This document shows positions 5,400 to 19,315 of a DNA stretch of 32,084 nt, in pieces; within the stretch, counting starts at the first letter, position 1; every line of letters starts with the position of its first letter. The DNA comes from Candidatus Aminicenantales bacterium. Lineage in GTDB: Bacteria; Acidobacteriota; Aminicenantia; Aminicenantales; UBA4085. The stretch covers positions 335,467 through 367,550 of the forward strand of contig JBEKTZ010000002.1 in assembly GCA_049515535.1 (NCBI GenBank). Reading direction: 5' to 3'. The notes under the pieces were generated by a model. The model was not told the origin of the DNA and searched no databases. It worked only from the letters and a program-made list of their open reading frames with translations. The position numbers were made by a program, and so were the translations under genes.

Positions 5400-6545
5400 T
5401 CAGCCGCGCAACCACCCTCGGGGGGAAAGCGCGTTTTCCACAGCGCGCTTTCCTCCCGGTTTCCAGCCAAGAACATCCTGCCAAATGTCTTCGTTCTCCA
5501 TGCACAAATAAAGCGGCACCTCTCCTCCACCGTATCGCCGAAGGAGGGTCGCGACGTGCCGGAAAAGTTCCTCTCGCAACGGCCGGAAATACCGGGCTTT
5601 GCCGTCCTGTCCCGTGATGAATTCCCCATGGACGATCCTTGAGCCGGGAAATCGCGTCTGGATGATTTTTTTCAAAGGCGGCGGAAAGCGGAAGCCTCCC
5701 AGGCTGATCCAGGCGATCCGGCCCGGGGGAATCGTGCGCGAGAGAGCGCGGACGACCGCGGCATAGCCGCTTTTCCAGCCCGCGTGCCGGATGAGCGGGT
5801 CGAAATGAAAGCCGACGCGGAATCCCCTTTCGACTACGGTCCGGGCGGCCTCGAGGCGGTCCTCGATGGAAGGAGCTCCCTGCTCCTCATCGCGGGCCAT
5901 GCGTTCGGCGTTCAAGGACCAAGACACGACGATATTTCGCGGAGGATCGATCTCGAGAAGTCCCCGGATATTCGTCGTTTTTGTCTTCAGCTCAAAATCG
6001 ACGTTCGGATGCTTCCGGAAATAGGAGATCAAGTCCCCGGATAGACCGGTGATGTGATCGAGGGCCAGTGAATCTCCCAACTCGCCCGTGCCCATCCGCA
6101 AATAGCGGAAAGCGAGTTTGCCGAGAAAAGCGTCCAGTTCCGCCCATAAATCCGTCGTATTGACGAAAACCGTGAGCCAGGGCTCGACCAGATAATTCTG
6201 GAGAATGCAATAGGTGCAATCCAAAGGGCATTGCAGGTTTAAATTGATGGTGAAATAACGGCAGCCGACATGGCCGGGCGTGCACGGGCAGGGCTTGACG
6301 AACTTTCCTTTTTGGGCGGCGAGCCAAAGGAGTTTCTTCCCTTCTCGAAGCGGATTTCCGGTTCCATGAAGGGCGGCCAGCACGGCCACTTTCTCGCGAG
6401 GATCTCCGATCACGGTCCGGGGAACGGTCTTGAGACGCGTCAGTATTCTTCGGGTCAGCGGAGCCTTCAGGACGCCGGCATCGACGAATATTCTTTCCGG
6501 GATATAAGCCCCTTCAAGAGCCCGCTTTCTTTGATTTTCTCTCAT
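5400..6545 (-). CDS. Spore photoproduct lyase (SplB)-like radical SAM protein
   Basis: CPLDCTYC radical SAM motif; GTGELGDSL, FELKTKT, VSWSLN, GFHFDPLI and YLCME segments typical of SPL-family homologues. Confidence 0.85.
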   Translation of the reverse strand: MRENQRKRALEGAYIPERIFVDAGVLKAPLTRRILTRLKTVPRTVIGDPREKVAVLAALHGTGNPLREGKKLLWLAAQKGKFVKPCPCTPGHVGCRYFTINLNLQCPLDCTYCILQNYLVEPWLTVFVNTTDLWAELDAFLGKLAFRYLRMGTGELGDSLALDHITGLSGDLISYFRKHPNVDFELKTKTTNIRGLLEIDPPRNIVVSWSLNAERMARDEEQGAPSIEDRLEAARTVVERGFRVGFHFDPLIRHAGWKSGYAAVVRALSRTIPPGRIAWISLGGFRFPPPLKKIIQTRFPGSRIVHGEFITGQDGKARYFRPLREELFRHVATLLRRYGGGEVPLYLCMENEDIWQDVLGWKPGGKRAVENALSPRGWLRG

Positions 6546-7497
6546 GTTTCCACAGGCCGTTCAATTCTTCTTTGGCGGCCAGCCCGGCCAACCGCGCGGC
6601 GTGCTCTTTGAATTCCTTCGCGTCGCGGAAGCGGAAATTCACGGTCATTTCGTCGCATTCGAAATAAGGAGCCGGGGCGATCGCGATATTTTTGGGCCAG
6701 CTCATTTTTTTCAGAACCGCGGCGAAATCCTCCTCCCAATCCGCCAGATGGGGGTTACGCATTTTTTTTAGAATCCGGCGAATGCGCTCGGATTTTTGGA
6801 GGAGCGGCCAGGCGTCCGAACGGAGGATGCGCCGGATGTCCTCTCTTCGCAAGATCCCGCGGACAGACCTGTTTTTTCCCAGGCACAAGCCCCTGAGATC
6901 TTCGAGTATTTCTTTCTGCTTATTCTGTCCAAGGGGGAGGAGGAGCGGGACGATGGCCTCCAGATCGCTCCGGCCGAATCCTGCGAGAAGCTGCGTCACG
7001 GAAAAAGGAAGTTTCCTATCGAGGACCAGGCGTTTGACGCCGGGCGGAAATCGGCCGATGGCTCGATAACCGTCAAGATAGAGTTTTGTGGGAGGAATAT
7101 CGATCATGGGCATGATGGTCTTGATGATCTCCGGATCGGACATGCCGAGCCCGCCCAATTTGGTCAGGATTTCCGCTTTTTCCAAATACGCGAATTCGCG
7201 AACGGCCAGATTTTCGTGAACGGCATAGAGAAAAGCCTCCCGGTCGTTCGGCTCGTCGAGGACGGCCGCCGGCAGGGTCCGCATCCCGATCTTCCTCCAA
7301 GCCGCCGCGCGTTTCCAGCCCGTGACGAGGATCCATTTTTGCCCCCTTTTCGTCACCACGGGCGGATGCAGCAACCCGATCCTTTGAACGGAGGCGGCCA
7401 GCCGGTCGATCGAAAACGTCGAGCTCGTCTTGAAACGCGTATCGTCGAGGTCGATGTCCCGCCATTTGAGGTCAATGAGCCCGCTCGTTTTAGCCAT
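6514..7497 (-). CDS. ParB/Srx N-terminal domain protein
   Basis: LAASVQRIGLLHPPVV...LVTGWKRAAA...HENL...EKA resembles ParB box I/II (GxxR, EN). Overlaps the radical SAM gene by 32 bp. Confidence 0.75.
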   Translation of the reverse strand: MAKTSGLIDLKWRDIDLDDTRFKTSSTFSIDRLAASVQRIGLLHPPVVTKRGQKWILVTGWKRAAAWRKIGMRTLPAAVLDEPNDREAFLYAVHENLAVREFAYLEKAEILTKLGGLGMSDPEIIKTIMPMIDIPPTKLYLDGYRAIGRFPPGVKRLVLDRKLPFSVTQLLAGFGRSDLEAIVPLLLPLGQNKQKEILEDLRGLCLGKNRSVRGILRREDIRRILRSDAWPLLQKSERIRRILKKMRNPHLADWEEDFAAVLKKMSWPKNIAIAPAPYFECDEMTVNFRFRDAKEFKEHAARLAGLAAKEELNGLWKHERKSKKAGS

Positions 7498-9402: not shown

Positions 9403-10599
9403 TCATTTCTTCGTCAAGGGACGAGCCTTGCGCTCGCCACTCGCCCGTGGCTTATATCCACGGGCGAGTACGGCAGAAGTGGACCCCCGGGCAAAGCCCG
9501 GGGCCCCGGCTGCCGCGGAAACGAGCTTTTCCACTTCTTTCAAGAGTTCGGCCCCGATCCTGTTTCCGGGGACGCGCCGGATAAGCCTTCCATTCTTAAA
9601 AAGAATCCCGACGCCCCGGCCGCAGGCCACGCCGACGTCCGCCTCTTTGGCTTCGCCGGGGCCGTTGACCATGCAGCCCATGACCGCCACGGTCAGGCTT
9701 TGGGGAATATGAGAAAGATTCTTTTCGATATTCGCCGCGATCGATGTGAGGTCCGTTTCGCACCGGCCGCAGGTCGGGCAGGCCACGATATTCGGCCCGC
9801 GGCGGCGGAGTTCGAGGCTGCCGAGGATCTGGTAAGCGACGCGGACCTCGTTTTCGGGTGAAGCCGCGAGAGAAACGCGGATCGTATCGGCCAGCCCTTC
9901 CTGCAATAGAAGCGCCAGGCCGACGGACGATTTGACCGTCCCGCATAGGAGCGGGCCGGCCTCCGTGATGCCGGAGTGAAAGGGATAGTCCGTTTGCCGT
10001 GATAGCCGGCGATAAGCTTCGATCGTCCGCAAGACATCCGATGCTTTCAAAGAGATCTTGATGAGACGAAAATCCAAATCCTCCAGGATCCGGATATGAC
10101 GCATCGCGCTTTCGACCATGGCCGTGGGCGTCGCCCCTCCGTATTTCTGGAGAAGGTCCTTTTCCAGCGATCCCGCGTTGACGCCGATCCGGATGGGGAT
10201 ATGGCGTTCTTTCGCCGCCAGGACGACCTCCTTGATTTTCACCCGGGAGCCGATATTACCCGGGTTGAGGCGCAGGCCGTCGATGCCGAGGTCGATGCAG
10301 GCCAGGGCCAATCTGTGGTCGAAATGGATATCGGCCACGAGCGGCACACGGGCCTTTTCCCTTATTTCCCGCAGCGCCGCCACGGCCCTCCTGTCCGGCA
10401 CGGCCAAGCGGACGATCTCGCAGCCTGCCTTTTCCAGGCGCTTGATCTGGGCTACGGTCGCCTTCACATCCCGCGTATCGGTCTTGGTCATGGATTGGAC
10501 GGATATGGGAGCTCCACCGCCGATGAGCACTCCGCCGATGGAAATCTGCCGCGTCTTACGGCGCGGCAGACCGAAATCGTTCTTCAAATCGTTCTCCAT
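9403..10599 (-). CDS. ispG: (E)-4-hydroxy-3-methylbut-2-enyl-diphosphate synthase IspG
   Basis: SVQSMT, PLVADIHF, RLNPGNIG, RIGVNAGSL, ACPTCGR, VMGCMVNGPGEA. The C-terminus carries the 102-bp repeat in frame. Confidence 0.96.
   Translation of the reverse strand: MENDLKNDFGLPRRKTRQISIGGVLIGGGAPISVQSMTKTDTRDVKATVAQIKRLEKAGCEIVRLAVPDRRAVAALREIREKARVPLVADIHFDHRLALACIDLGIDGLRLNPGNIGSRVKIKEVVLAAKERHIPIRIGVNAGSLEKDLLQKYGGATPTAMVESAMRHIRILEDLDFRLIKISLKASDVLRTIEAYRRLSRQTDYPFHSGITEAGPLLCGTVKSSVGLALLLQEGLADTIRVSLAASPENEVRVAYQILGSLELRRRGPNIVACPTCGRCETDLTSIAANIEKNLSHIPQSLTVAVMGCMVNGPGEAKEADVGVACGRGVGILFKNGRLIRRVPGNRIGAELLKEVEKLVSAAAGAPGFARGSTSAVLARGYKPRASGERKARPLTKK
9413..9514 (+). repeat. 102-bp palindromic repeat, copy 1 (inside ispG 3' end)
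   Basis: GTCAAGGGACGAGCC...CCCCGGGCAAAGCCCGGGGCCCCGGCTGCC; near-identical to 14802-14903 and 15415-15516. Confidence 0.93.
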
Positions 10600-10675
10600 C
10601 CATCCCGCTGAAGAAAAAACCGAACCGACGCGATGGGCGGGAGCCGGGGGACTCGGTCGAGCGAAAACATCGTTC

Positions 10676-12019
10676 TCAAAACGGCAATAAGCTCCCCCAG
10701 CCATGCGGCAGTTTCTTGACGACATCGTTCAAAATGAAAAAAGCGGCAATAAAAACGAAGATGACGAACCCGATCTGCATCCAGATCTGGCGGGCTTTGG
10801 GGTTGAAATCGCGGCGGAAAACGCTTTCCAGGATCAAAACGAAGAGCTGTCCGCCGTCGAAGACCGGGATGGGAAAAAGATTGATGACTCCCAGCTGGAG
10901 GCTGATGAACGCGATCCAGCTCAAAAGGGGAAGAAACCCCATCTGCAGAGCGGCGTAGGACAATTTGGCGATTTCCAGGGGGCCGCCCACCTGGCGGGTC
11001 GAGGCCCGGCCCGTCACCAGGTTCTTGATGAAATCGATCACCAAAAAGACGAGCCTCTTGTTTTCCTTATAACTCTGCCCGATGGCTTTGAAAAACCCGA
11101 ATTTTTTCATGACGGATTTGGCCGTCTGTTGAACGCCGATCTTGCCGATCTTCCCTTCGAGCCTGGGCGTGATTTTCAGGGTGACGGGGCTGCCGTCGCG
11201 CAGCACGCTGAACGTCAGCTCCTTCCCCGGGCTTTTTTCCAGGACTTCGATGAATTTGTAAAAATAGACCTGCGCGTCGTCGATCGTCAGGATGACGTCG
11301 CCGGGCTTCAGCCCGCCTTTCTCGGCGGGGGAACCGGGCGAAACCATCACAATCTGAGTCGGGATCTTTCCATAGAATCCGGCATAGCCCAGCTCGAACT
11401 GGATCTTTTTGTCCTTTTCGATCTGAAGCTCGACGGGAACGATCGCGCCATCCCGCTTGATCTCCAGGACCACTCGCGTATCGGGTTTCGATCCTACGAC
11501 GATCTCGACGTCGCTCCAGGTCTCGACCTTTCGATGGTTGATGCTCAGGATCTCGTCGTCGATCTTGAGATCCGCCTTCGCGGCGGGCGACCCGGCGTCG
11601 ATCCAGCCGATCACGGGCTTTTCGTCCAAATATTCGGGAATGGTCGCGCCGATCATGTTGATGACGGCGACGATAAAGATGGCCAGAAGGACGTTCATCA
11701 CCGCGCCCATGGCGAGGACCAGGAAACGCTGCCAGCGTTTTTTGGCCATGAAGTCGTCGGGCTCGATCGGTCGGCTCGTGTCAAAAACGCCTTCTCCGAG
11801 GAATTTGACGTAGCCGCCCATGGGGATGGCGCTGACCCGGTAGTCCGTGTGTCCCCTTTTGAAACCGAAGAGCCTCTTGCCATAGCCGAAGGAAAAGGTT
11901 TCCACCCGGATGCCGACGAGCTTGGCCATGAAAAAATGGCCGAATTCGTGGATGAAGACGCAGATGCCGAAGACGATAAGGAAAGCCAGGATAGTGCCGA
12001 ACAATGTGACCATGATCAA
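10676..12019 (-). CDS. rseP: RIP metalloprotease RseP
   Basis: HEFGH zinc motif, IPMGGYVKF, two PDZ-like domains (SPAAKADLK, SPAEKGGLKPGD), NLFPIPVFDGG. Confidence 0.95.
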   Translation of the reverse strand: MIMVTLFGTILAFLIVFGICVFIHEFGHFFMAKLVGIRVETFSFGYGKRLFGFKRGHTDYRVSAIPMGGYVKFLGEGVFDTSRPIEPDDFMAKKRWQRFLVLAMGAVMNVLLAIFIVAVINMIGATIPEYLDEKPVIGWIDAGSPAAKADLKIDDEILSINHRKVETWSDVEIVVGSKPDTRVVLEIKRDGAIVPVELQIEKDKKIQFELGYAGFYGKIPTQIVMVSPGSPAEKGGLKPGDVILTIDDAQVYFYKFIEVLEKSPGKELTFSVLRDGSPVTLKITPRLEGKIGKIGVQQTAKSVMKKFGFFKAIGQSYKENKRLVFLVIDFIKNLVTGRASTRQVGGPLEIAKLSYAALQMGFLPLLSWIAFISLQLGVINLFPIPVFDGGQLFVLILESVFRRDFNPKARQIWMQIGFVIFVFIAAFFILNDVVKKLPHGWGSLLPF

Positions 12020-13176
12020 TACCTTTGCTGAAGGATTTGAAGAGTCCGTCGTTTCGTCGATCGGTCGATATCGAAGATGCCTTCCAGGCCTCGAACTTTT
12101 TCCTCGACGTGTCCCTCCATCGCTCGGTGGACGAGTTCGCTGATCGCGCCAAAGCCGATCCGTCGCCCCAGGAAAGCCTCGACGGCGACTTCATTGGCCG
12201 CGTTCAAGGCCACGGACGCGCTCGCGCCGCCTTCAAGTGCCCGGTAAGCCAGGCGAATCAGCGGATAACGTCGGACTTCGACGGCATAAAATTCGAGGGC
12301 GCCGATGCCGGCCAGGTCGAGAGGCGGAAGCACGCCCGGCCGGCGCTCCGGGTACGTTAGGGCGAACTGAATCGGGATCTTCATGTCCGTTGGACCGAGC
12401 TGGGCCAAGACCGAGCCGTCCCGCATTTCGACGAGCGCATGGACGATGCTCTGGGGATGGATGAGGATATCCAGCTCTCCGGGCTTGAGATCGAAAAGCC
12501 AGCGGGCTTCGATGAGCTCCAGCCCTTTGTTCATGAGCGTCGCGGAATCCACGGTCACCTTGTTCCCCATTTTCCAGCGGGGATGGGCCAGGGCTTCCTC
12601 GACCGTTTTGACCCTCAGGGCGGCCAGAGGTGTCCGGAAAAAAGGTCCTCCGGACGCCGTCAACGTCACTTTCTTCGCGTTACGCCGGGCCTCGCCGGCC
12701 AGGCACTGGAATACGCCGCTGTGCTCGGAATCGACCGGGATGATCTCCGCCCCAGACTTGCGCGCTTCCGCGCGGATCAGAGGACCGGCGACGACCATGG
12801 ATTCTTTGTTGGCCAGCGCCACCCTTTTTCCGGCGCGGACGGCGGCCAGCGTCGGCCTCAGGCCGTTGATCCCCGTGATGGCCGCGACGACGATATCGGT
12901 ATTTTCACAGCCGCCGATCTCTTCCGCGCCCTGGGGGCCATAGGTCACCCGGACCGAGTTCCTCTTAAAGGCGCCGCGGACGATTTCCGCGTCTTCTTTC
13001 CTTGAGAGAGAAACGAGTTCGGGGTGGAATTCTCTGATCTGCTCTTCCAACACGCGAACGTTGGATCCCGCGGCCAGGGCCGTGACGCGAAAATACCGGC
13101 GATGATGCCGGACGACTTCGAGCGTGTTCCGGCCGATCGTCCCGGTGGAGCCCAAAATCGCGATTTTTTTCTTCAA
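12016..13176 (-). CDS. dxr: 1-deoxy-D-xylulose-5-phosphate reductoisomerase
   Basis: LGSTGTIG, LANKES, PVDSEHS, LTASGGPF, HPRWKMGNKVTVDSAT, NKGLELIEA, NAANEVAV; TTG start. Confidence 0.97.
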   Translation of the reverse strand: MKKKIAILGSTGTIGRNTLEVVRHHRRYFRVTALAAGSNVRVLEEQIREFHPELVSLSRKEDAEIVRGAFKRNSVRVTYGPQGAEEIGGCENTDIVVAAITGINGLRPTLAAVRAGKRVALANKESMVVAGPLIRAEARKSGAEIIPVDSEHSGVFQCLAGEARRNAKKVTLTASGGPFFRTPLAALRVKTVEEALAHPRWKMGNKVTVDSATLMNKGLELIEARWLFDLKPGELDILIHPQSIVHALVEMRDGSVLAQLGPTDMKIPIQFALTYPERRPGVLPPLDLAGIGALEFYAVEVRRYPLIRLAYRALEGGASASVALNAANEVAVEAFLGRRIGFGAISELVHRAMEGHVEEKVRGLEGIFDIDRSTKRRTLQILQQRY

Positions 13177-13179
13177 CGA

Positions 13180-13986
13180 TCACTTCCAGAAATAGCGAAG
13201 GTAATAATAAAAGAACGGCGCCGCGAGAATAAGGCTGTCGATCCTGTCCAGGACTCCGCCGTGACCCGGCAGGATATTCGAAGAATCCTTGACCCCGACG
13301 GCCCTTTTGAACAGCGATTCGAGAGGATCGCTGATCTGGGCTACGGCATGAACGAGCACGCCGCAGAGGGCCGCTTGTCCCGGACCGATCTGGTTCAGAA
13401 AGAGTCGCTGCGCCGCGAGGGCGCCGAGGCAAGCGAAAGCGAGGCCTCCGACGCTGCCCTCCCAGGTCTTGTTCGGGCTGGCGATGGGCGTCATTTTATG
13501 CTGCCCGATGAGCTTTCCGAAGAGGTAGCCTCCGGTGTCGCCGAGAAAGATCACGCCCAAAAAAAAATAGAGAACCAGCGGCCCTCTTTCCGCCTGGAGA
13601 AGATATAAATGGTTCAAAGTGAAGCTGATATAAACCGGCCCGAAGATCGTGACGGCAAAAGCGGCGGGAAAGGCCATGACCTTCTCGACCGTGTCGAAGA
13701 CGATCAAAAAATATAGGCCGCTGAGCAAAAGGACTCCGAACAGCGCGATCTCGAAGGGAAAAGCCTTGAGGAAAAACGAAGCACTGATGAGCAAGGCCGC
13801 GAGAATTCCGACCGCCGGCCGGGGCCGAAGCTTCTTTTTGCCGGCCAGGTTGTAGAACTCGACGAGGGCCATGACGATGACGATCTGGACGAAACAAAAG
13901 AAGGCCGCGGGTGGAGCCCACTGGAGAATGGAGAAGAGAATCGCCAGGAGGATCATGGCCGTCGGAAATCTTTTGCGGAAGCTCAT
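13180..13986 (-). CDS. cdsA: Phosphatidate cytidylyltransferase
   Basis: DTGGYLFG, SPNKTWEG, ESLFKRAVGVKDSSNILPGHGGVLDRIDS. ATG 13986 overlaps the uppS stop (ATGA). Confidence 0.95.
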   Translation of the reverse strand: MSFRKRFPTAMILLAILFSILQWAPPAAFFCFVQIVIVMALVEFYNLAGKKKLRPRPAVGILAALLISASFFLKAFPFEIALFGVLLLSGLYFLIVFDTVEKVMAFPAAFAVTIFGPVYISFTLNHLYLLQAERGPLVLYFFLGVIFLGDTGGYLFGKLIGQHKMTPIASPNKTWEGSVGGLAFACLGALAAQRLFLNQIGPGQAALCGVLVHAVAQISDPLESLFKRAVGVKDSSNILPGHGGVLDRIDSLILAAPFFYYYLRYFWK

Positions 13987-14756
13987 TTCGCCGCTTGGAT
14001 ATCGCCGAACCGCCGTTCTCGCTTTTGGTAATCGACCAAGGCCTGAAGAAGATGTTTTCTCCGGAAATCCGGCCAATAATCCGGCGTGATCCAGATCTCG
14101 GAATAGGCGATCTGCCATAAAAGGAAATTCGACACGCGGAATTCTCCGCTCGTCCGGATCAGCAAATCCGGGTCGGGCAGGTCCGCGGTGTACAAATAGC
14201 GGGAAAAGGTTTCCTCGGTCAGATCTTCCGGATATATGGATTCGTCGCCAAGGATCCGCTTGACGGCATCCACGATCTCGGCGCGGCCGCTATAGTTCAA
14301 AGCCAGACAAAGTTTCATCCGCTGGTTGTTCCTGGTCAGCTCTTCGACCCTCTCCAACTCGCGGCGTACGACCGCCGGCAGGCCGTCTTTTTGGCCGAGA
14401 ACCATGAGACATAAATCGTTTTCAATCAGGACCTTGTCCTGCTTCTTCAGATAATCCTTGAGAAACCTGAAGAGGCTCGAGACCTCGTTTTTCGGCCGTT
14501 TCCAGTTTTCCTTGGAAAAAGCATACAGCGTGAGGACCTTGATTCCGATTCTGGCGCTCGTCTCGACAGCTTCATGGACCGATTCCGCTGCGGCACGGTG
14601 ACCCTCGATACGGGGGAGGTTCCGGCTTTTTGCCCAGCGGCCGTTGCCGTCCATGATGATGGCCACGTGACGCGGGATTCTCGACAAATCGAGCTCCGCG
14701 GCCAAGCGGGCTTCTTCGCTGCCGGGCTTGAGGAACCCTTCTAAATCCTTGAACAT
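13983..14756 (-). CDS. uppS: Undecaprenyl/isoprenyl diphosphate synthase
   Basis: HVAIIMDGNGRWA, YAFSKENWKRP, DLLIRTSGEFRVSNFLLWQ, RRFG. Confidence 0.97.
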   Translation of the reverse strand: MFKDLEGFLKPGSEEARLAAELDLSRIPRHVAIIMDGNGRWAKSRNLPRIEGHRAAAESVHEAVETSARIGIKVLTLYAFSKENWKRPKNEVSSLFRFLKDYLKKQDKVLIENDLCLMVLGQKDGLPAVVRRELERVEELTRNNQRMKLCLALNYSGRAEIVDAVKRILGDESIYPEDLTEETFSRYLYTADLPDPDLLIRTSGEFRVSNFLLWQIAYSEIWITPDYWPDFRRKHLLQALVDYQKRERRFGDIQAAK

Positions 14757-14762
14757 GCGGAC

Positions 14763-14791
14763 ATTATAGGGGTTGACTCGAGAATTGTCAA
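14763..14791 (-). promoter_or_regulatory. Perfect-consensus sigma70 promoter of the uppS operon
   Basis: Minus strand TTGACA(14791-14786)-17 bp-TATAAT(14768-14763), 6 nt before the uppS ATG. Confidence 0.85.
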
Positions 14792-14801
14792 AAAATAGAT
14801 C

Positions 14802-14903
14802 GTCAAGGGACGAGCCTTCGGCTCGCCACTCGCCCGTGGTTTATATTCACGGGCGAGTACGGCGGAAGTGGACCCCCGGGCGAAGCCCGGGGCCCCGTAC
14901 GCC
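14802..14903 (+). repeat. 102-bp palindromic repeat, copy 2 (intergenic uppS/hypC)
   Basis: GTCAAGGGACGAGCCTTCGGCTCG...CCCCGGGCGAAGCCCGGGGCCCCGTACGCC. Confidence 0.93.
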
Positions 14904-15067
14904 GGCGAAATGACGACGCTCCCCGGGGGAAAAGAGGGCGAGACAAAGGGCCGGATATCTTGGATGAGAGGTCGAGGACGGAAGGGCGGATTTCCGCGCT
15001 CTTCCCCGCGCCCCTTCCCAAAGTCCGCCAAATCTGCTAATCTAAGCGGGTTAAGAAAGAGAAAAAG

Positions 15068-15292
15068 ATGTGTTTGGGAATACCGTCGAAAATCATAGAG
15101 ATGGATGATGTCCGGAGGACCGGAAAGATCGATTATCTCGGGACGAAAGTCAAAACGAACTTCGCCCTCCTGGACGACGCTAAGATCGGAGACTGGGTGA
15201 TCGTCCACGCCGGATTCGCCATCTCCAAACTGGATGAAAAGGACGCCCGGGAAACTCTCGATATGCTCCGGGAGATCGCGGAAAAGGGCTGA
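15068..15292 (+). CDS. hypC: Hydrogenase maturation chaperone HypC
   Basis: N-terminal MCLGIP, GDWVIVHAGFAI. Confidence 0.96.
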   Translation: MCLGIPSKIIEMDDVRRTGKIDYLGTKVKTNFALLDDAKIGDWVIVHAGFAISKLDEKDARETLDMLREIAEKG

Positions 15293-15351
15293 AAACGGCC
15301 GGCGGATCGGGCCGTCAAATCTGCCGCGGACGCAAATGCCACGAAGCTCGG

Positions 15352-16656
15352 ATGAAAAGAAAAACGGAAAAATCGAGACCTGACCCGGTCAAGGGACGAG
15401 CCTTCGCGGCGGAAGTCAAGGGACGAGCCTTCGGCTCGCCACTCGCCCGTGGTTTATATCGACGGGCGAGTACGGCGGAAATGGATCCCCGGGCAAAACC
15501 CGGGGCCCCGTCCGCCGTGGACCCCCGGGCAAAGCCCGGGGCCCCGGCCGCTGTCGCCGCGTTCCGGCGGAAGAAGGTCATCGACGCTCTCGTCGCCAGA
15601 ATAGAGAAAAAAAGGATAGAGCTTCCCTCCCCGTGCCGCATCATGGAAGTCTGCGGCACTCATACCATGACGGTCCACCGGTACGGGCTTCAAACGATGC
15701 TCGAAAAGGCCGGCGTCGAAATGATCTCCGGACCCGGCTGCCCCGTCTGTATCACGCCGGGCGGGATCCATGAAGCCGCCATCCGGCTCGTGACGGAAAA
15801 AGAGAACCTCATCCTCGCGACCTTCGGCGACATGACCCGTGTTCCGACGCGCCGCGGCTCCCTGCAAAAAGCCGTCCCGGCCAAAGGCTCGGCCGTTCGG
15901 GTCGTCTATTCTTCGGAGGAATCGCTCGATTTCGCCCGCCGGAACTCGGACAAAGAAATTGTTTTCTTCGGAGTCGGTTTCGAAACGACCATTCCTTCCA
16001 TCGCCTTGGCGGCCAAATCCGCCGCCGCGGAGAAACTTTCCAATTATTCCATCCTCTCCGCGCTCTGGATGATCCCTCCTCCGCTCCGGGCCATTCTTGA
16101 GGCCGACGACGTAAGGATATCCGGCTTTCTCTATCCGGGCCACGTCAGCGCCATCATCGGGCAAAAACCCTATGAATTCGTCGCCCGGGAGTTCGGCGTT
16201 CCCGGAGTCATCGCCGGATTCGAGCCGGGAGACATGCTTCTCGGGATTATCTCGATCCTGGACCAGATCCGTGAAGGCCGACCCGTCGTCGCGAACGAAT
16301 ATACGAGGGTCGTCCGGCCTGAAGGGAACCCGGTCGCCTTGGCCGTGATGAGAGAAATCCTCGAGCCCAAAGATGCCTGCTGGCGGGGTTTGGGCCTGAT
16401 TCCCGAAAGCGGGCTGAGATTCCGCGTCCGCTACGCCGCGTATGACGCCGAAATCAAACACAAGCTCGAGACCGAGGCCGATGAGGCCGATCTTCCGGGC
16501 TGCCGCTGCGGCGATGTTCTTCGGGGCGTGCTCACCCCCCAGGCCTGCCCTTTGTTCGGCAGAAGATGCGCTCCGGAATCGCCTTCCGGCCCGTGCATGG
16601 TCTCTCTCGAAGGGGCCTGCTTCATCCAATATAAATATCGAGGACCCCGATCATGA
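15352..16656 (+). CDS. hypD: Hydrogenase maturation protein HypD with a 55-aa repeat-derived N-terminal insert
   Basis: MEVCGTHT, GPGCPVC, GFETT, PGHVS, GFEP, CRCGDVLRG...CPLFG..C...GPCMVSLEGAC. Confidence 0.95.
   Translation: MKRKTEKSRPDPVKGRAFAAEVKGRAFGSPLARGLYRRASTAEMDPRAKPGAPSAVDPRAKPGAPAAVAAFRRKKVIDALVARIEKKRIELPSPCRIMEVCGTHTMTVHRYGLQTMLEKAGVEMISGPGCPVCITPGGIHEAAIRLVTEKENLILATFGDMTRVPTRRGSLQKAVPAKGSAVRVVYSSEESLDFARRNSDKEIVFFGVGFETTIPSIALAAKSAAAEKLSNYSILSALWMIPPPLRAILEADDVRISGFLYPGHVSAIIGQKPYEFVAREFGVPGVIAGFEPGDMLLGIISILDQIREGRPVVANEYTRVVRPEGNPVALAVMREILEPKDACWRGLGLIPESGLRFRVRYAAYDAEIKHKLETEADEADLPGCRCGDVLRGVLTPQACPLFGRRCAPESPSGPCMVSLEGACFIQYKYRGPRS
15388..15552 (+). repeat. Nested pair of the 102-bp repeat: full copy 15415-15516 inside an internally deleted 63-bp copy (15388-15414 + 15517-15552)
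   Basis: The outer halves rejoin as CGGCGGAA|GTGGAC, which is contiguous in copy 2. Total 165 bp = 55 codons, in frame in hypD. Confidence 0.88.
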
Positions 16657-17641: not shown

Positions 17642-19315
17642 ATGAAAAACACCAAGCCGGACCGGGGCCGCCGAATCGTCGTCGCGCTGCTCGTGGCCGC
17701 CGGCGTTTATGGCCTCCGTCTCGAAGCCGCGACCCAGACGAACGAACTCGCCCCCGGGACATTCACGGATTTTCGTTCGGACGTGAAAGAGTATCGCGAA
17801 CTGTTCAAGCTCATCCGCTCGACCCTGGACCATAACGCTGTCTCGTTCCAGGGAAAAACGGGGACGATTTACGGTTTCGCCGCCGGAGCCGCTTATCCCC
17901 AAATCTGGCTGCGGGATGCGTACACGATCATTCCGGCTTCGCGGCTTTTTTATGAAGCCCCGTACCTTCAATCATGGCTCGAAGAGCATCTGGCTTTTCA
18001 GCGGGACGACGGATCGCTCGAGGATTGGATCGATTCGCGCGGGAAGCGCGACAAAAATACGACCGAAACCGACCAGGAAACGAGCGCCGTTCGGGCGGCC
18101 GCCCGGATCGCCCGGATCTCCGGGACCGCCTGGCTCCGGAAGATGATCGACGGCGAATCCATTATCGGCCGGCTCGAGAGGGCCCTCGGCTCGGTCCTCC
18201 GCTCGAGGTTCGACAAGGGCCACGGGCTCGTCACCGGCGCGCACACCGCGGACTGGGGCGATGTCGACATGGGGCGCGAGGACCAGCGCGCCATCTCTAT
18301 CGACCAACGGACTCATTGGACGTGCGACATCTACGACCAGAGCGAATTCCACGGCGCCGCGCTGGACCTCGCCTGGATGTTGACCTCAGACGGCCAAACG
18401 GAGAAGGCGAGATTCTGGTCCGGACAGGCCGCGCTCATTCGGAAAAATGCCGACCGGTGGCTCTGGCAGGAAGAGCGCGGCTTCTACCGGGTCCACATTC
18501 ATCTCGATGCGTTGCGGCACGATTTCGACGAGGACGCGATGTTCGCCATGGGCGGAAACACGGAGGCCATCCTTTCCGGATTGGCCTCCGAAGACAAATG
18601 CCGGCGGATCATCGAAACCGCGCTGACTCGGCAGAAAGAGTTCTCGATGTCGACGATCAGCGGGACCCTCCTCCCTCCTTATCCGAAGGGATTCTTCAAG
18701 CATCCGATGCTGGACCAGCCTTATGAATATCAGAACGGCGGCCAATGGGACTGGTTCGGCGGGAGACTCATCCACGCGATGTTCGAACACGGCTTCAGCC
18801 GCGAGGCCCGGCGGAAACTTTCCGAGATCGCTGGGAAGGCCATCGCCAACCGGGGACTTTTCGAATGGGACAGCCCGGCCGGTATAGGCCAGGGGAGCCC
18901 TTTTTATTCGGGAAGCGCCGGGAGCCTGGCCGAAGCCCTTTTCGAGGGATACTTCGGGTTCAAAATTGCCAAGGACGAATGGTCATTGGAACCAAAACTG
19001 GCCGAGGACAATGCGGCCGTCCACGTCTATTATCCGGCGGCCGGGAGCTTCGCGGCTTACGATTATCGATGGGATGGAAAGAATACGGCCGTGGCGTTCC
19101 GCTACAATGGGAATCTCCCGAACCCGGGAAAGGTCAAAATCCTCGTGCCCTGGCTCCATGAGAACGGCGGGCCGATCGAAAAGCTGAAAAATGTCGACGT
19201 CCGCCGGGACGGCCGGAAGATCGCCTTCCTTCCGGCCGTTCTCAACGGTGACGCGTTCGTCGTCGTCGAGACGGATTTCAAAAACCATATTCTGGAAATA
19301 AGGCAAAATCGTTAA
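17642..19315 (+). CDS. Secreted six-hairpin glycosidase-like protein ((alpha/alpha)6 glycoside hydrolase-like)
   Basis: Signal-peptide-like start (MKNTKPDRGRRIVVALLVAAGVYGLRLEA); YPQIWLRD, ADWGD, YQNGGQW and LFEW motifs recall GH63/GH78/amylo-1,6-glucosidase-like folds. The ORF-track start at 16943 overlaps hypE and is rejected. Confidence 0.6.
   Translation: MKNTKPDRGRRIVVALLVAAGVYGLRLEAATQTNELAPGTFTDFRSDVKEYRELFKLIRSTLDHNAVSFQGKTGTIYGFAAGAAYPQIWLRDAYTIIPASRLFYEAPYLQSWLEEHLAFQRDDGSLEDWIDSRGKRDKNTTETDQETSAVRAAARIARISGTAWLRKMIDGESIIGRLERALGSVLRSRFDKGHGLVTGAHTADWGDVDMGREDQRAISIDQRTHWTCDIYDQSEFHGAALDLAWMLTSDGQTEKARFWSGQAALIRKNADRWLWQEERGFYRVHIHLDALRHDFDEDAMFAMGGNTEAILSGLASEDKCRRIIETALTRQKEFSMSTISGTLLPPYPKGFFKHPMLDQPYEYQNGGQWDWFGGRLIHAMFEHGFSREARRKLSEIAGKAIANRGLFEWDSPAGIGQGSPFYSGSAGSLAEALFEGYFGFKIAKDEWSLEPKLAEDNAAVHVYYPAAGSFAAYDYRWDGKNTAVAFRYNGNLPNPGKVKILVPWLHENGGPIEKLKNVDVRRDGRKIAFLPAVLNGDAFVVVETDFKNHILEIRQNR

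Follow-up and report, generated by a model that had tools for sequence, protein, structure and literature searches.

Palindrome-associated transposable elements (PATEs) are defined in PMC3119063 and appear again in bioRxiv 10.1101/2023.03.14.532601; those of Haloquadratum are described as mobile even though their local tnpA copies have become pseudogenes (PMC3119063). Insertion sequences (ISs) of the IS200/IS605 type carry their active strand on the lagging-strand template (PMC5027513) and insert downstream of a target chosen by a DNA guide, with no duplication (bioRxiv 10.1101/2023.03.14.532601). Other palindromic repeats, namely the Rickettsia palindromic elements (RPEs), REP and BRE, are found in frame in proteins (PMC10969869, PMC3733652, PMC3184786), and as presented in this group of papers the CGTC/RPE class has no obvious transposase of its own; see also PMC6006769. 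In-frame palindromes have been recognized since the Rickettsia elements but, as far as these sources go, were described without an enzyme. Here we describe a 102-bp repeat that occurs between genes, and inside genes such as ispG and hypD, in a stretch of 32,084 nucleotides, hereafter the window, from a Candidatus Aminicenantales bacterium (GCA_049515535.1, contig JBEKTZ010000002.1, positions 335,467 to 367,550).

The repeat is probably a gene-less derivative of IS200/IS605 elements, that is a PATE, with its active strand on the minus strand of the window and moved in trans by a Y1 transposase (TnpA). The original prediction, made from the window sequence, had proposed a non-autonomous hairpin element of no recognizable family which adds peptides in either orientation and is mobilized in trans. 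This proposal is supported except that the element is recognizable as a PATE-type IS200/IS605 derivative, and it is therefore a new family of a known class. What is added here is the correction of a nested copy, an empty allele in a close strain, a strand bias, a test of the guide and a comparison of the 101- and 102-bp forms.

Anatomy, target and strand of the repeat

The three 102-bp copies reported at 9413-9514, 14802-14903 and 15415-15516 are borne out; they lie in one orientation, with pairwise identities of 92-95 of 102 bases, and each folds as three hairpins (z about -5 to -6 versus shuffles), as the term multi-hairpin had implied. It is also correct that terminal inverted repeats are lacking, none being among the window's listed repeats, and that the window holds no transposase, since no such family is present among the 29 window proteins scanned. 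The only Rfam match in the window is a tRNA.

The anatomy can be followed in the copy at 14802-14903, which is intergenic, between uppS (minus) and hypC (plus), and is read here on the minus strand. A putative DNA guide, GGGG (14893-14896), stands directly 5′ of the foot of the left-end subterminal hairpin, whose core (14874-14892) is IS200/IS605-like; this guide, assigned by a rule tested on local IS200 elements, predicts the target CCNC. The left-end hairpin is followed by a central hairpin, module B (14828-14858, strand unassigned), which is missing from a shorter 63-bp form, and by the fixed right-end motif TTGAC (14802-14806, GTCAA on the plus strand). At 63-102 bp and with non-complementary ends, the element is too short for a transposase gene and has no terminal inverted repeats; its subterminal palindromes fold as single-stranded DNA hairpins, of which the strongest is at the left end.

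Further copies were expected, and profile searches revealed 127 loci in the 3.45-Mb genome. The lengths of 94 simple copies were measured: 63 bp accounts for 48 of them and 102 bp for 42; a 78-bp form and composite copies are also present. Read on the minus strand, all forms are joined at their 5′ end to a host pentamer, TC[G/C/A]AC, with the cut position ambiguous by one base. Among 90 simple copies the five target positions are T in 71, C in 82, G, C or A in 53, 28 and 8, A in 72 and C in 86, and the bases beyond the TTGAC end, at which the 63- and 102-bp forms terminate, are random. Another 112 copies, taken from other genomes and from metagenomes, repeat this one-sided pattern. Target enrichment is highest for TCCAC (229-fold), followed by TCGAC (182-fold).

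Insertion leaves no target duplication. A fourth copy in the window had been read as deleted, but no deletion gave rise to it: 15388-15552 comprises an intact 63-bp element interrupted by a 102-bp copy. The right-end half of the host element (15388-15414, minus) and its left-end half (15517-15552, minus, with its own target at 15553-15557) are both complete, and the 102-bp copy (15415-15516, minus) sits after base 27, adjoining the target TCCAC (15517-15521) within the host element. Six such nested heads occur in the genome, the other half of the host element being in place for three. A contig of run X6 from a close strain (depth 41, ~96% identical) joins 15387 directly to 15553, the whole 165-bp block being absent. 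Run joints that skip 102 bp were not used, as free 63-bp copies elsewhere give an equal signal. In the compared genome G008 (G000 denotes the genome studied, other G numbers the other genomes compared), a copy inside an IS91-like gene aligns with empty homologues, again with no duplication. Clean insertion is likewise seen in five genes, described below, whose orthologues lack exactly 21 or 34 residues. Contigs of run X2, from another study, reach the ispG and hypD copies out of unique flanking sequence, and the assembly is thus no artefact at these places. With neither terminal inverted repeats nor target duplication, a classical DDE-type miniature inverted-repeat transposable element was rejected. 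The same holds for an IS110-type element, since one flank is random with no two-sided core target, and no module of the repeat is found at the two IS110 loci.

In IS608, guide base 2 reportedly pairs with target position -4, base 1 with -3 and base 4 with -1. This rule gives the correct target for all 16 left ends that could be parsed, from 19 loci, in the local IS200 subfamily; nine different tetramers are covered. Of 127 pattern matches for the repeat, some of them noise, 108 have GGGG as the guide, and this tetramer calls for C at -4, -3 and -1. The observed base is C at -4 in 82 of 90 copies and at -1 in 86 of 90; at -3, G is commoner than C, a mismatch that the local IS200 also shows at its right end.

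The active strand lies on the G>C strand (lagging-strand template) in 92 of 123 copies (p 3e-8), against a background in which this strand holds 47.7% of target sites and 53.7% of genes. The bias agrees in 15 of 16 contigs and is alike for genic and intergenic copies. It accounts for the shared orientation of the window copies within 6 kb, to which the original prediction had drawn attention.

The candidate transposase

Among the enzyme classes listed in the original prediction, the anatomy of the ends favors TnpA of IS200/IS605 (Y1) and not RAYT, GIY-YIG or IS110. The genome's own IS200/IS605 tnpA carries a stop codon, in an element bounded by TTGAC at both ends. An intact tnpA, 93% identical and encoding 147 residues, is found in genome G014, and the nearest structures to its product are the TnpA proteins of ISDra2 and IS608. 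A 101-bp variant of the repeat (101/62) has a hairpin apex identical to that of the local IS200; the hairpin is similar and the TTGAC end is common to both. The most likely partner is an IS200-type element of the same order with a TTGAC end and a similar hairpin, the pairing itself being putative. One IS200-type element with TTGAC ends (G000:C9:107.9-108.5 kb; L011, L235) is inserted in an IS1-like gene, and the guide-target covariation over nine tetramers in 16 copies makes the IS200 subfamily of this order a natural retargeting series.

We propose that a Y1 HUH transposase, supplied in trans, would bind the left-end hairpin in DNA made single-stranded at the replication fork, with the GGGG guide selecting the target by base pairing. 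TnpA would then peel the strand out as a circle and paste it elsewhere. Most insertions would be purged, since ~90% of possible targets are in genes, and the survivors would be those that are intergenic, at gene ends or in frame. In-gene copies could persist as Ala/Pro/Gly-rich loops of 21, 26 or 34 residues, because the dominant forms are 63, 78 and 102 bp, even in the single-copy essential genes gltX, ispG and bamA.

Several observations weigh against this assignment. A strict left-end pattern revealed no autonomous parent in 246 genomes, the only hit being one degenerate ordinary copy. Beside 30 TnpA loci we found no modules of the repeat beyond a weak likeness of hairpins, and near 193 fetched loci of the repeat we found no TnpA. 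The close TnpA subfamily is present in only 2 of 13 carrier genomes (co-occurrence p 0.24) and is broken in the genome studied. As to the guide, TCGAC, the target met most often, can be accommodated only through a G:G mismatch at -3 or by slippage of the guide there; there is no guide-target covariation within the family, nor does the base adjoining the guide covary; and the left-end loop, from cut to guide, is 7 nt, where the local IS200 has 13-15 nt. In the 63-bp form the right end has no canonical hairpin plus guide. The leading strand was assigned by GC skew, on an assembly that is fragmented, and in the sibling family F2 the strand bias is not significant (16/26). The missing autonomous element is weak counter-evidence because the Haloquadratum PATEs move despite a pseudogene tnpA, and repeated ISs assemble badly in metagenome-assembled genomes.

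Two sibling families accompany the repeat. The first, with 38 loci (e.g. C8:136633-136820), is gene-less and multi-hairpin, ~165-205 bp long, and has a TTGAC target and end and the hairpin of the local IS200. None of its copies is inside a called gene, promoter-like -10 boxes follow several, and one lies within the loop of the studied element (C1:55385-55485). The other, with 11 loci (e.g. C7:156021-156150), is gene-less and ~100-115 bp in length, with classic IS605-type hairpins and TTGAC/TTGAT ends. As for the repeat itself, its TTGAC end creates no excess of hybrid promoters (3/125 versus a background of 43/1250).

A domesticated Y1 enzyme of the RAYT/TnpA-REP kind could in principle move the repeat as a REP/REPIN-like unit, by binding a hairpin with a 5′ tetranucleotide and cutting on both sides at variable distance, which would yield the 63-, 78- and 102-bp forms. 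Such cuts 5′ and 3′ of REP are made by TnpA-REP, according to the account in PMC8266576. The left-end hairpin is indeed common to all forms, with a variable far end; the 63-bp form has a single strong hairpin; and a RAYT-like gene is present here as well as in all five of the carrier genomes searched. However, the element lacks a GTAG tag, its ends are fixed to the base, its copies are single rather than inverted doublets, and REP cleavage takes place at dinucleotides such as CT, not at a fixed pentamer. No copy flanks any of 7 RAYT-like loci, several of which bear unrelated long inverted repeats. On this flanking evidence the RAYT-like genes were set aside, and we consider a REP-like unit unlikely. 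The RAYT-like gene of this genome (G000:C13:96.2-97.2 kb; L012) has a C-terminal extension and long flanking inverted repeats, and like genes occur in five relatives, several with different inverted repeats. GIY-YIG genes were rejected as well: a composite copy lies downstream at 1 of 10 loci, and three other carriers have like genes without a copy.

One-sided targeting and the lack of duplication would also fit a miniature element that depends on rolling-circle (IS91/ISCR, Y2) or other HUH enzymes, with a fixed origin end at the target and a terminator hairpin ahead of the far end. This genome has six decayed IS91-like transposase remnants, remnants are also found in 3 of 4 other carriers searched, and in three genomes copies lie inside IS91-like genes. 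The ends of the remnants, however, are AT-rich ISCR-type sequences unrelated to the element, with no flanking copies, and the remnants were rejected as its source; the guide rule and the common TTGAC end indicate Y1. This alternative we regard as very improbable, and IS200/IS605 TnpA is preferred. The copies inside IS91-like remnants (L024, L025, L010; G048, G008, G012) occupy an identical site in two of the genomes, which belong to different families, and such remnants are a possible vehicle for horizontal spread of the element.

Copies in coding DNA and in related genomes

The element had been predicted to insert into protein-coding genes. This is true of the ispG and hypD copies, which are both in frame; the third copy (14802) is intergenic. 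Our hexamer gene caller puts 84 of the 126 classified copies between genes and 31 inside open reading frames (ORFs), while 11 overlap gene ends; 18 copies keep a distance of 30 codons or more from the start and 20 or more from the end, and a stricter two-sided test places 12 of 114 copies in genes. In-gene copies are strongly depleted, because ~90% of possible target sites fall in genes, and in-frame insertion is a tolerated minority outcome, since most copies are intergenic.

Empty orthologous sites were found for ispG, hypD and several further genes. The 102-bp copy at 9413-9514 (active strand minus) lies 2-3 codons before the stop of ispG (9403-10602, minus; start from our gene caller, the longest ORF starting at 10725), a single-copy gene, and adds 34 residues. 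Orthologues end a few residues past the last helix, and here the 34 residues precede the final Lys-Lys-stop; 24 readable orthologous C-termini are without the copy. Its host target pentamer, TCCGC (9515-9519, minus), is a variant of TCNAC, and the same bases stand at the empty site of the orthologue in genome G004. The hypD ORF (15352-16656, plus) bears the nested 165-bp insertion, of 55 codons, near its N-terminus, in frame and upstream of the HypD domain, with possible in-frame starts at 15352, 15481 or 15517. In orthologues the start Met lies 5-8 residues before a conserved FR motif; here there is no start codon between the element and this motif, and so residues of the element belong to HypD whichever of the three starts is used. 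Segments are thus added in frame to core enzymes, as had been claimed, but both examples in the window are at protein termini and not in the folded core.

Deep internal in-frame insertions do occur elsewhere in the genome. In comparison with 4-5 orthologues each, GltX, AFOR, a phosphodiesterase and a LeuC-family dehydratase show a gap of exactly 21 residues (for the dehydratase, a neighboring loop is common to one orthologue only), and a permuted iPGM shows a gap of exactly 34. The halves of this iPGM are in swapped order (G000:C2:209882-211621; L137), as they are in five relatives, and the 102-bp element is in the linker between them. Since gltX, ispG and bamA are single-copy genes, the insertions in them would appear to be tolerated, and the element presumably stays in the mRNA and is translated. 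An AlphaFold model of the decorated GltX was uninformative (mean pLDDT 49).

The original prediction noted frames free of stops. Three plus frames and one minus frame are open in each 102-bp copy, as reported, but this number does not exceed chance: representative copies of 102 and 63 bp have 3 and 4 of six frames open, versus modes of 3 and 5 in shuffles, and the notion that the repeat is stop-free by design was rejected. There is a preference between frames, in that 28 of 39 in-gene copies (three sets pooled) are read in two of the six, both Ala/Pro/Gly-rich, where target phases would predict 49% (p 0.003). This preference, the strong folding and the identity of 93-94% across genera are what a structured RNA or peptide module under selection, rather than a selfish element, would be expected to show. 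Against such a module, the core is present in only 13 of 246 genomes and patchily so, copies are missing at orthologous sites and vary between close strains, their position relative to genes is not fixed, and Rfam has no match for the element. An assembly artefact is countered by contigs of other studies, which pass from unique flanks into copies. A functional module or artefact is largely refuted already by the empty orthologous sites, and we give it hardly any credence.

Landing in frame, with the addition of 21 or 34 residues, is possible because the common forms are 63 or 102 bases long, and the survival of in-frame copies needs no special adaptation. Several comparisons bear on whether codon length matters beyond this. 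Codon-multiple copies are located in coding DNA in 39 of 210 cases, versus 3 of 51 for other copies (p 0.03); among copies with both ends found, the 101/62-bp variant has 1 of 15 in coding DNA. This variant reaches at most 11 copies per genome, and the codon-multiple core 96, 70 and 44 copies in the three richest genomes. The sibling gene-less families are in genes in 0 of 49 cases versus 31 of 126 for the element (p 1e-5), a comparison which is confounded, the siblings being longer and 9 of 19 measured F2 copies also codon multiples. We tentatively suggest that a PATE lineage became harmless in coding DNA through translatability, an extra base in the hairpin loop having turned a frameshifting 101/62 form into the 102/63 form that colonizes essential genes. 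That codon-multiple length drove the expansion is a hypothesis, because the genomes are related and most copies are intergenic.

Copies were also expected in relatives, and the element was matched in 16 of 60, with identities up to 94%; the 13 genomes with the core pattern are all of the order and span two families. Named carrier records are mostly Candidatus Aminicenantes, together with contigs labelled Acidobacteria (3), Spirochaetes (1), Eubacteriales (2) and Elusimicrobia (1), some of which may be mis-binned. The copy on the Elusimicrobia-labelled contig is a divergent variant that continues the reading frame of an alpha/beta hydrolase. A plasmid search for the element gave no match, and 17 viral contigs matched its 15-base head but none continued as element, so that these matches were taken as chance. 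In metagenome loci of other lineages (L273, L283, L347, L378), the loop of the left hairpin of the element harbors further nested hairpin modules of 30-40 bp, like the SMR-in-PATE nesting of haloarchaea.

Other features were noted along the way. At G000:C12:61870-65800 the 3′ half of tRNA-Arg(TCG) is duplicated ~3.7 kb apart, each half after a partial or whole element, in an island-like arrangement. Within the window, a spore-photoproduct-lyase-like radical SAM gene adjoins a ParB-N-domain gene (5400-7497), and hypE is followed by a plus-strand ORF of 570 codons from stop to stop (17643-19315), where two shorter ORFs are without a Pfam match.

Comparison with known mobile and palindromic repeats

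PATEs and in-frame palindromic repeats have each been published already; their combination is apparently new, no paper on it having been found. Our literature search met no description of this family or of PATEs read as protein, though subscription journals, ISfinder or supplements could hold one. The surprise is limited, because the components are each known. What changes is that a 63-mer oligonucleotide and a 147-residue enzyme can now be used to test how such peptide insertions arise, because target, guide, fixed end, strand bias, nesting and empty allele point to IS200/IS605 TnpA. GltX, IspG, BamA and AFOR offer natural examples of permissive insertion sites, and annotators should be aware that Aminicenantes proteins bear recurring mobile peptides.

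Like the PATEs of the published accounts, the element is gene-less, with no terminal inverted repeats, subterminal palindromes, a short target oligonucleotide and no target duplication; many copies, nesting, very short terminal-only forms and a local tnpA pseudogene are further points in common. Unlike PATEs as described there, its dominant forms are codon multiples that persist in frame in essential proteins; moreover its right end has no second copy of the left hairpin, and no parent IS with matching ends was found. With IS200/IS605 elements, including ISC and IS605B as reported in PMC4810608 and PMC5027513, it shares target-specific, duplication-free insertion and lagging-strand orientation. 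The geometry of ISC elements (5′-GTCA or 5′-CA termini; GT|GG, GT|GA or 5′ of ATGA), as given in PMC4810608, equals the plus-strand reading of our element. In contrast to all of these, it is only 63-102 bp long and carries no tnpA, tnpB or iscB cargo, nor was a TnpB found in the genome.

The resemblance to RPE and intragenic REP and BRE, to the extent that these are covered in the sources cited above, lies in palindromes of ~100 bp that are read in frame within conserved proteins of unrelated kinds, tRNA synthetases among them, at loops and termini. Unlike the RPE class, the element has an insertion chemistry that is readable from its ends, namely target, guide, fixed end and strand bias. Its host is of a phylum other than that of the RPEs, and it has no Rfam match. 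If the translatable PATE is real, it would provide a readable mechanism for the origin of RPE-type peptide insertions, reversible by scarless TnpA excision.

IStrons make IS200/IS605-type mobility harmless inside genes through RNA self-splicing. The present element resembles them in that mobility of the same type is harmless in genes, and differs in that it would stay in the mRNA and be translated; a translatable PATE would thus be a protein-level alternative to IStron splicing.

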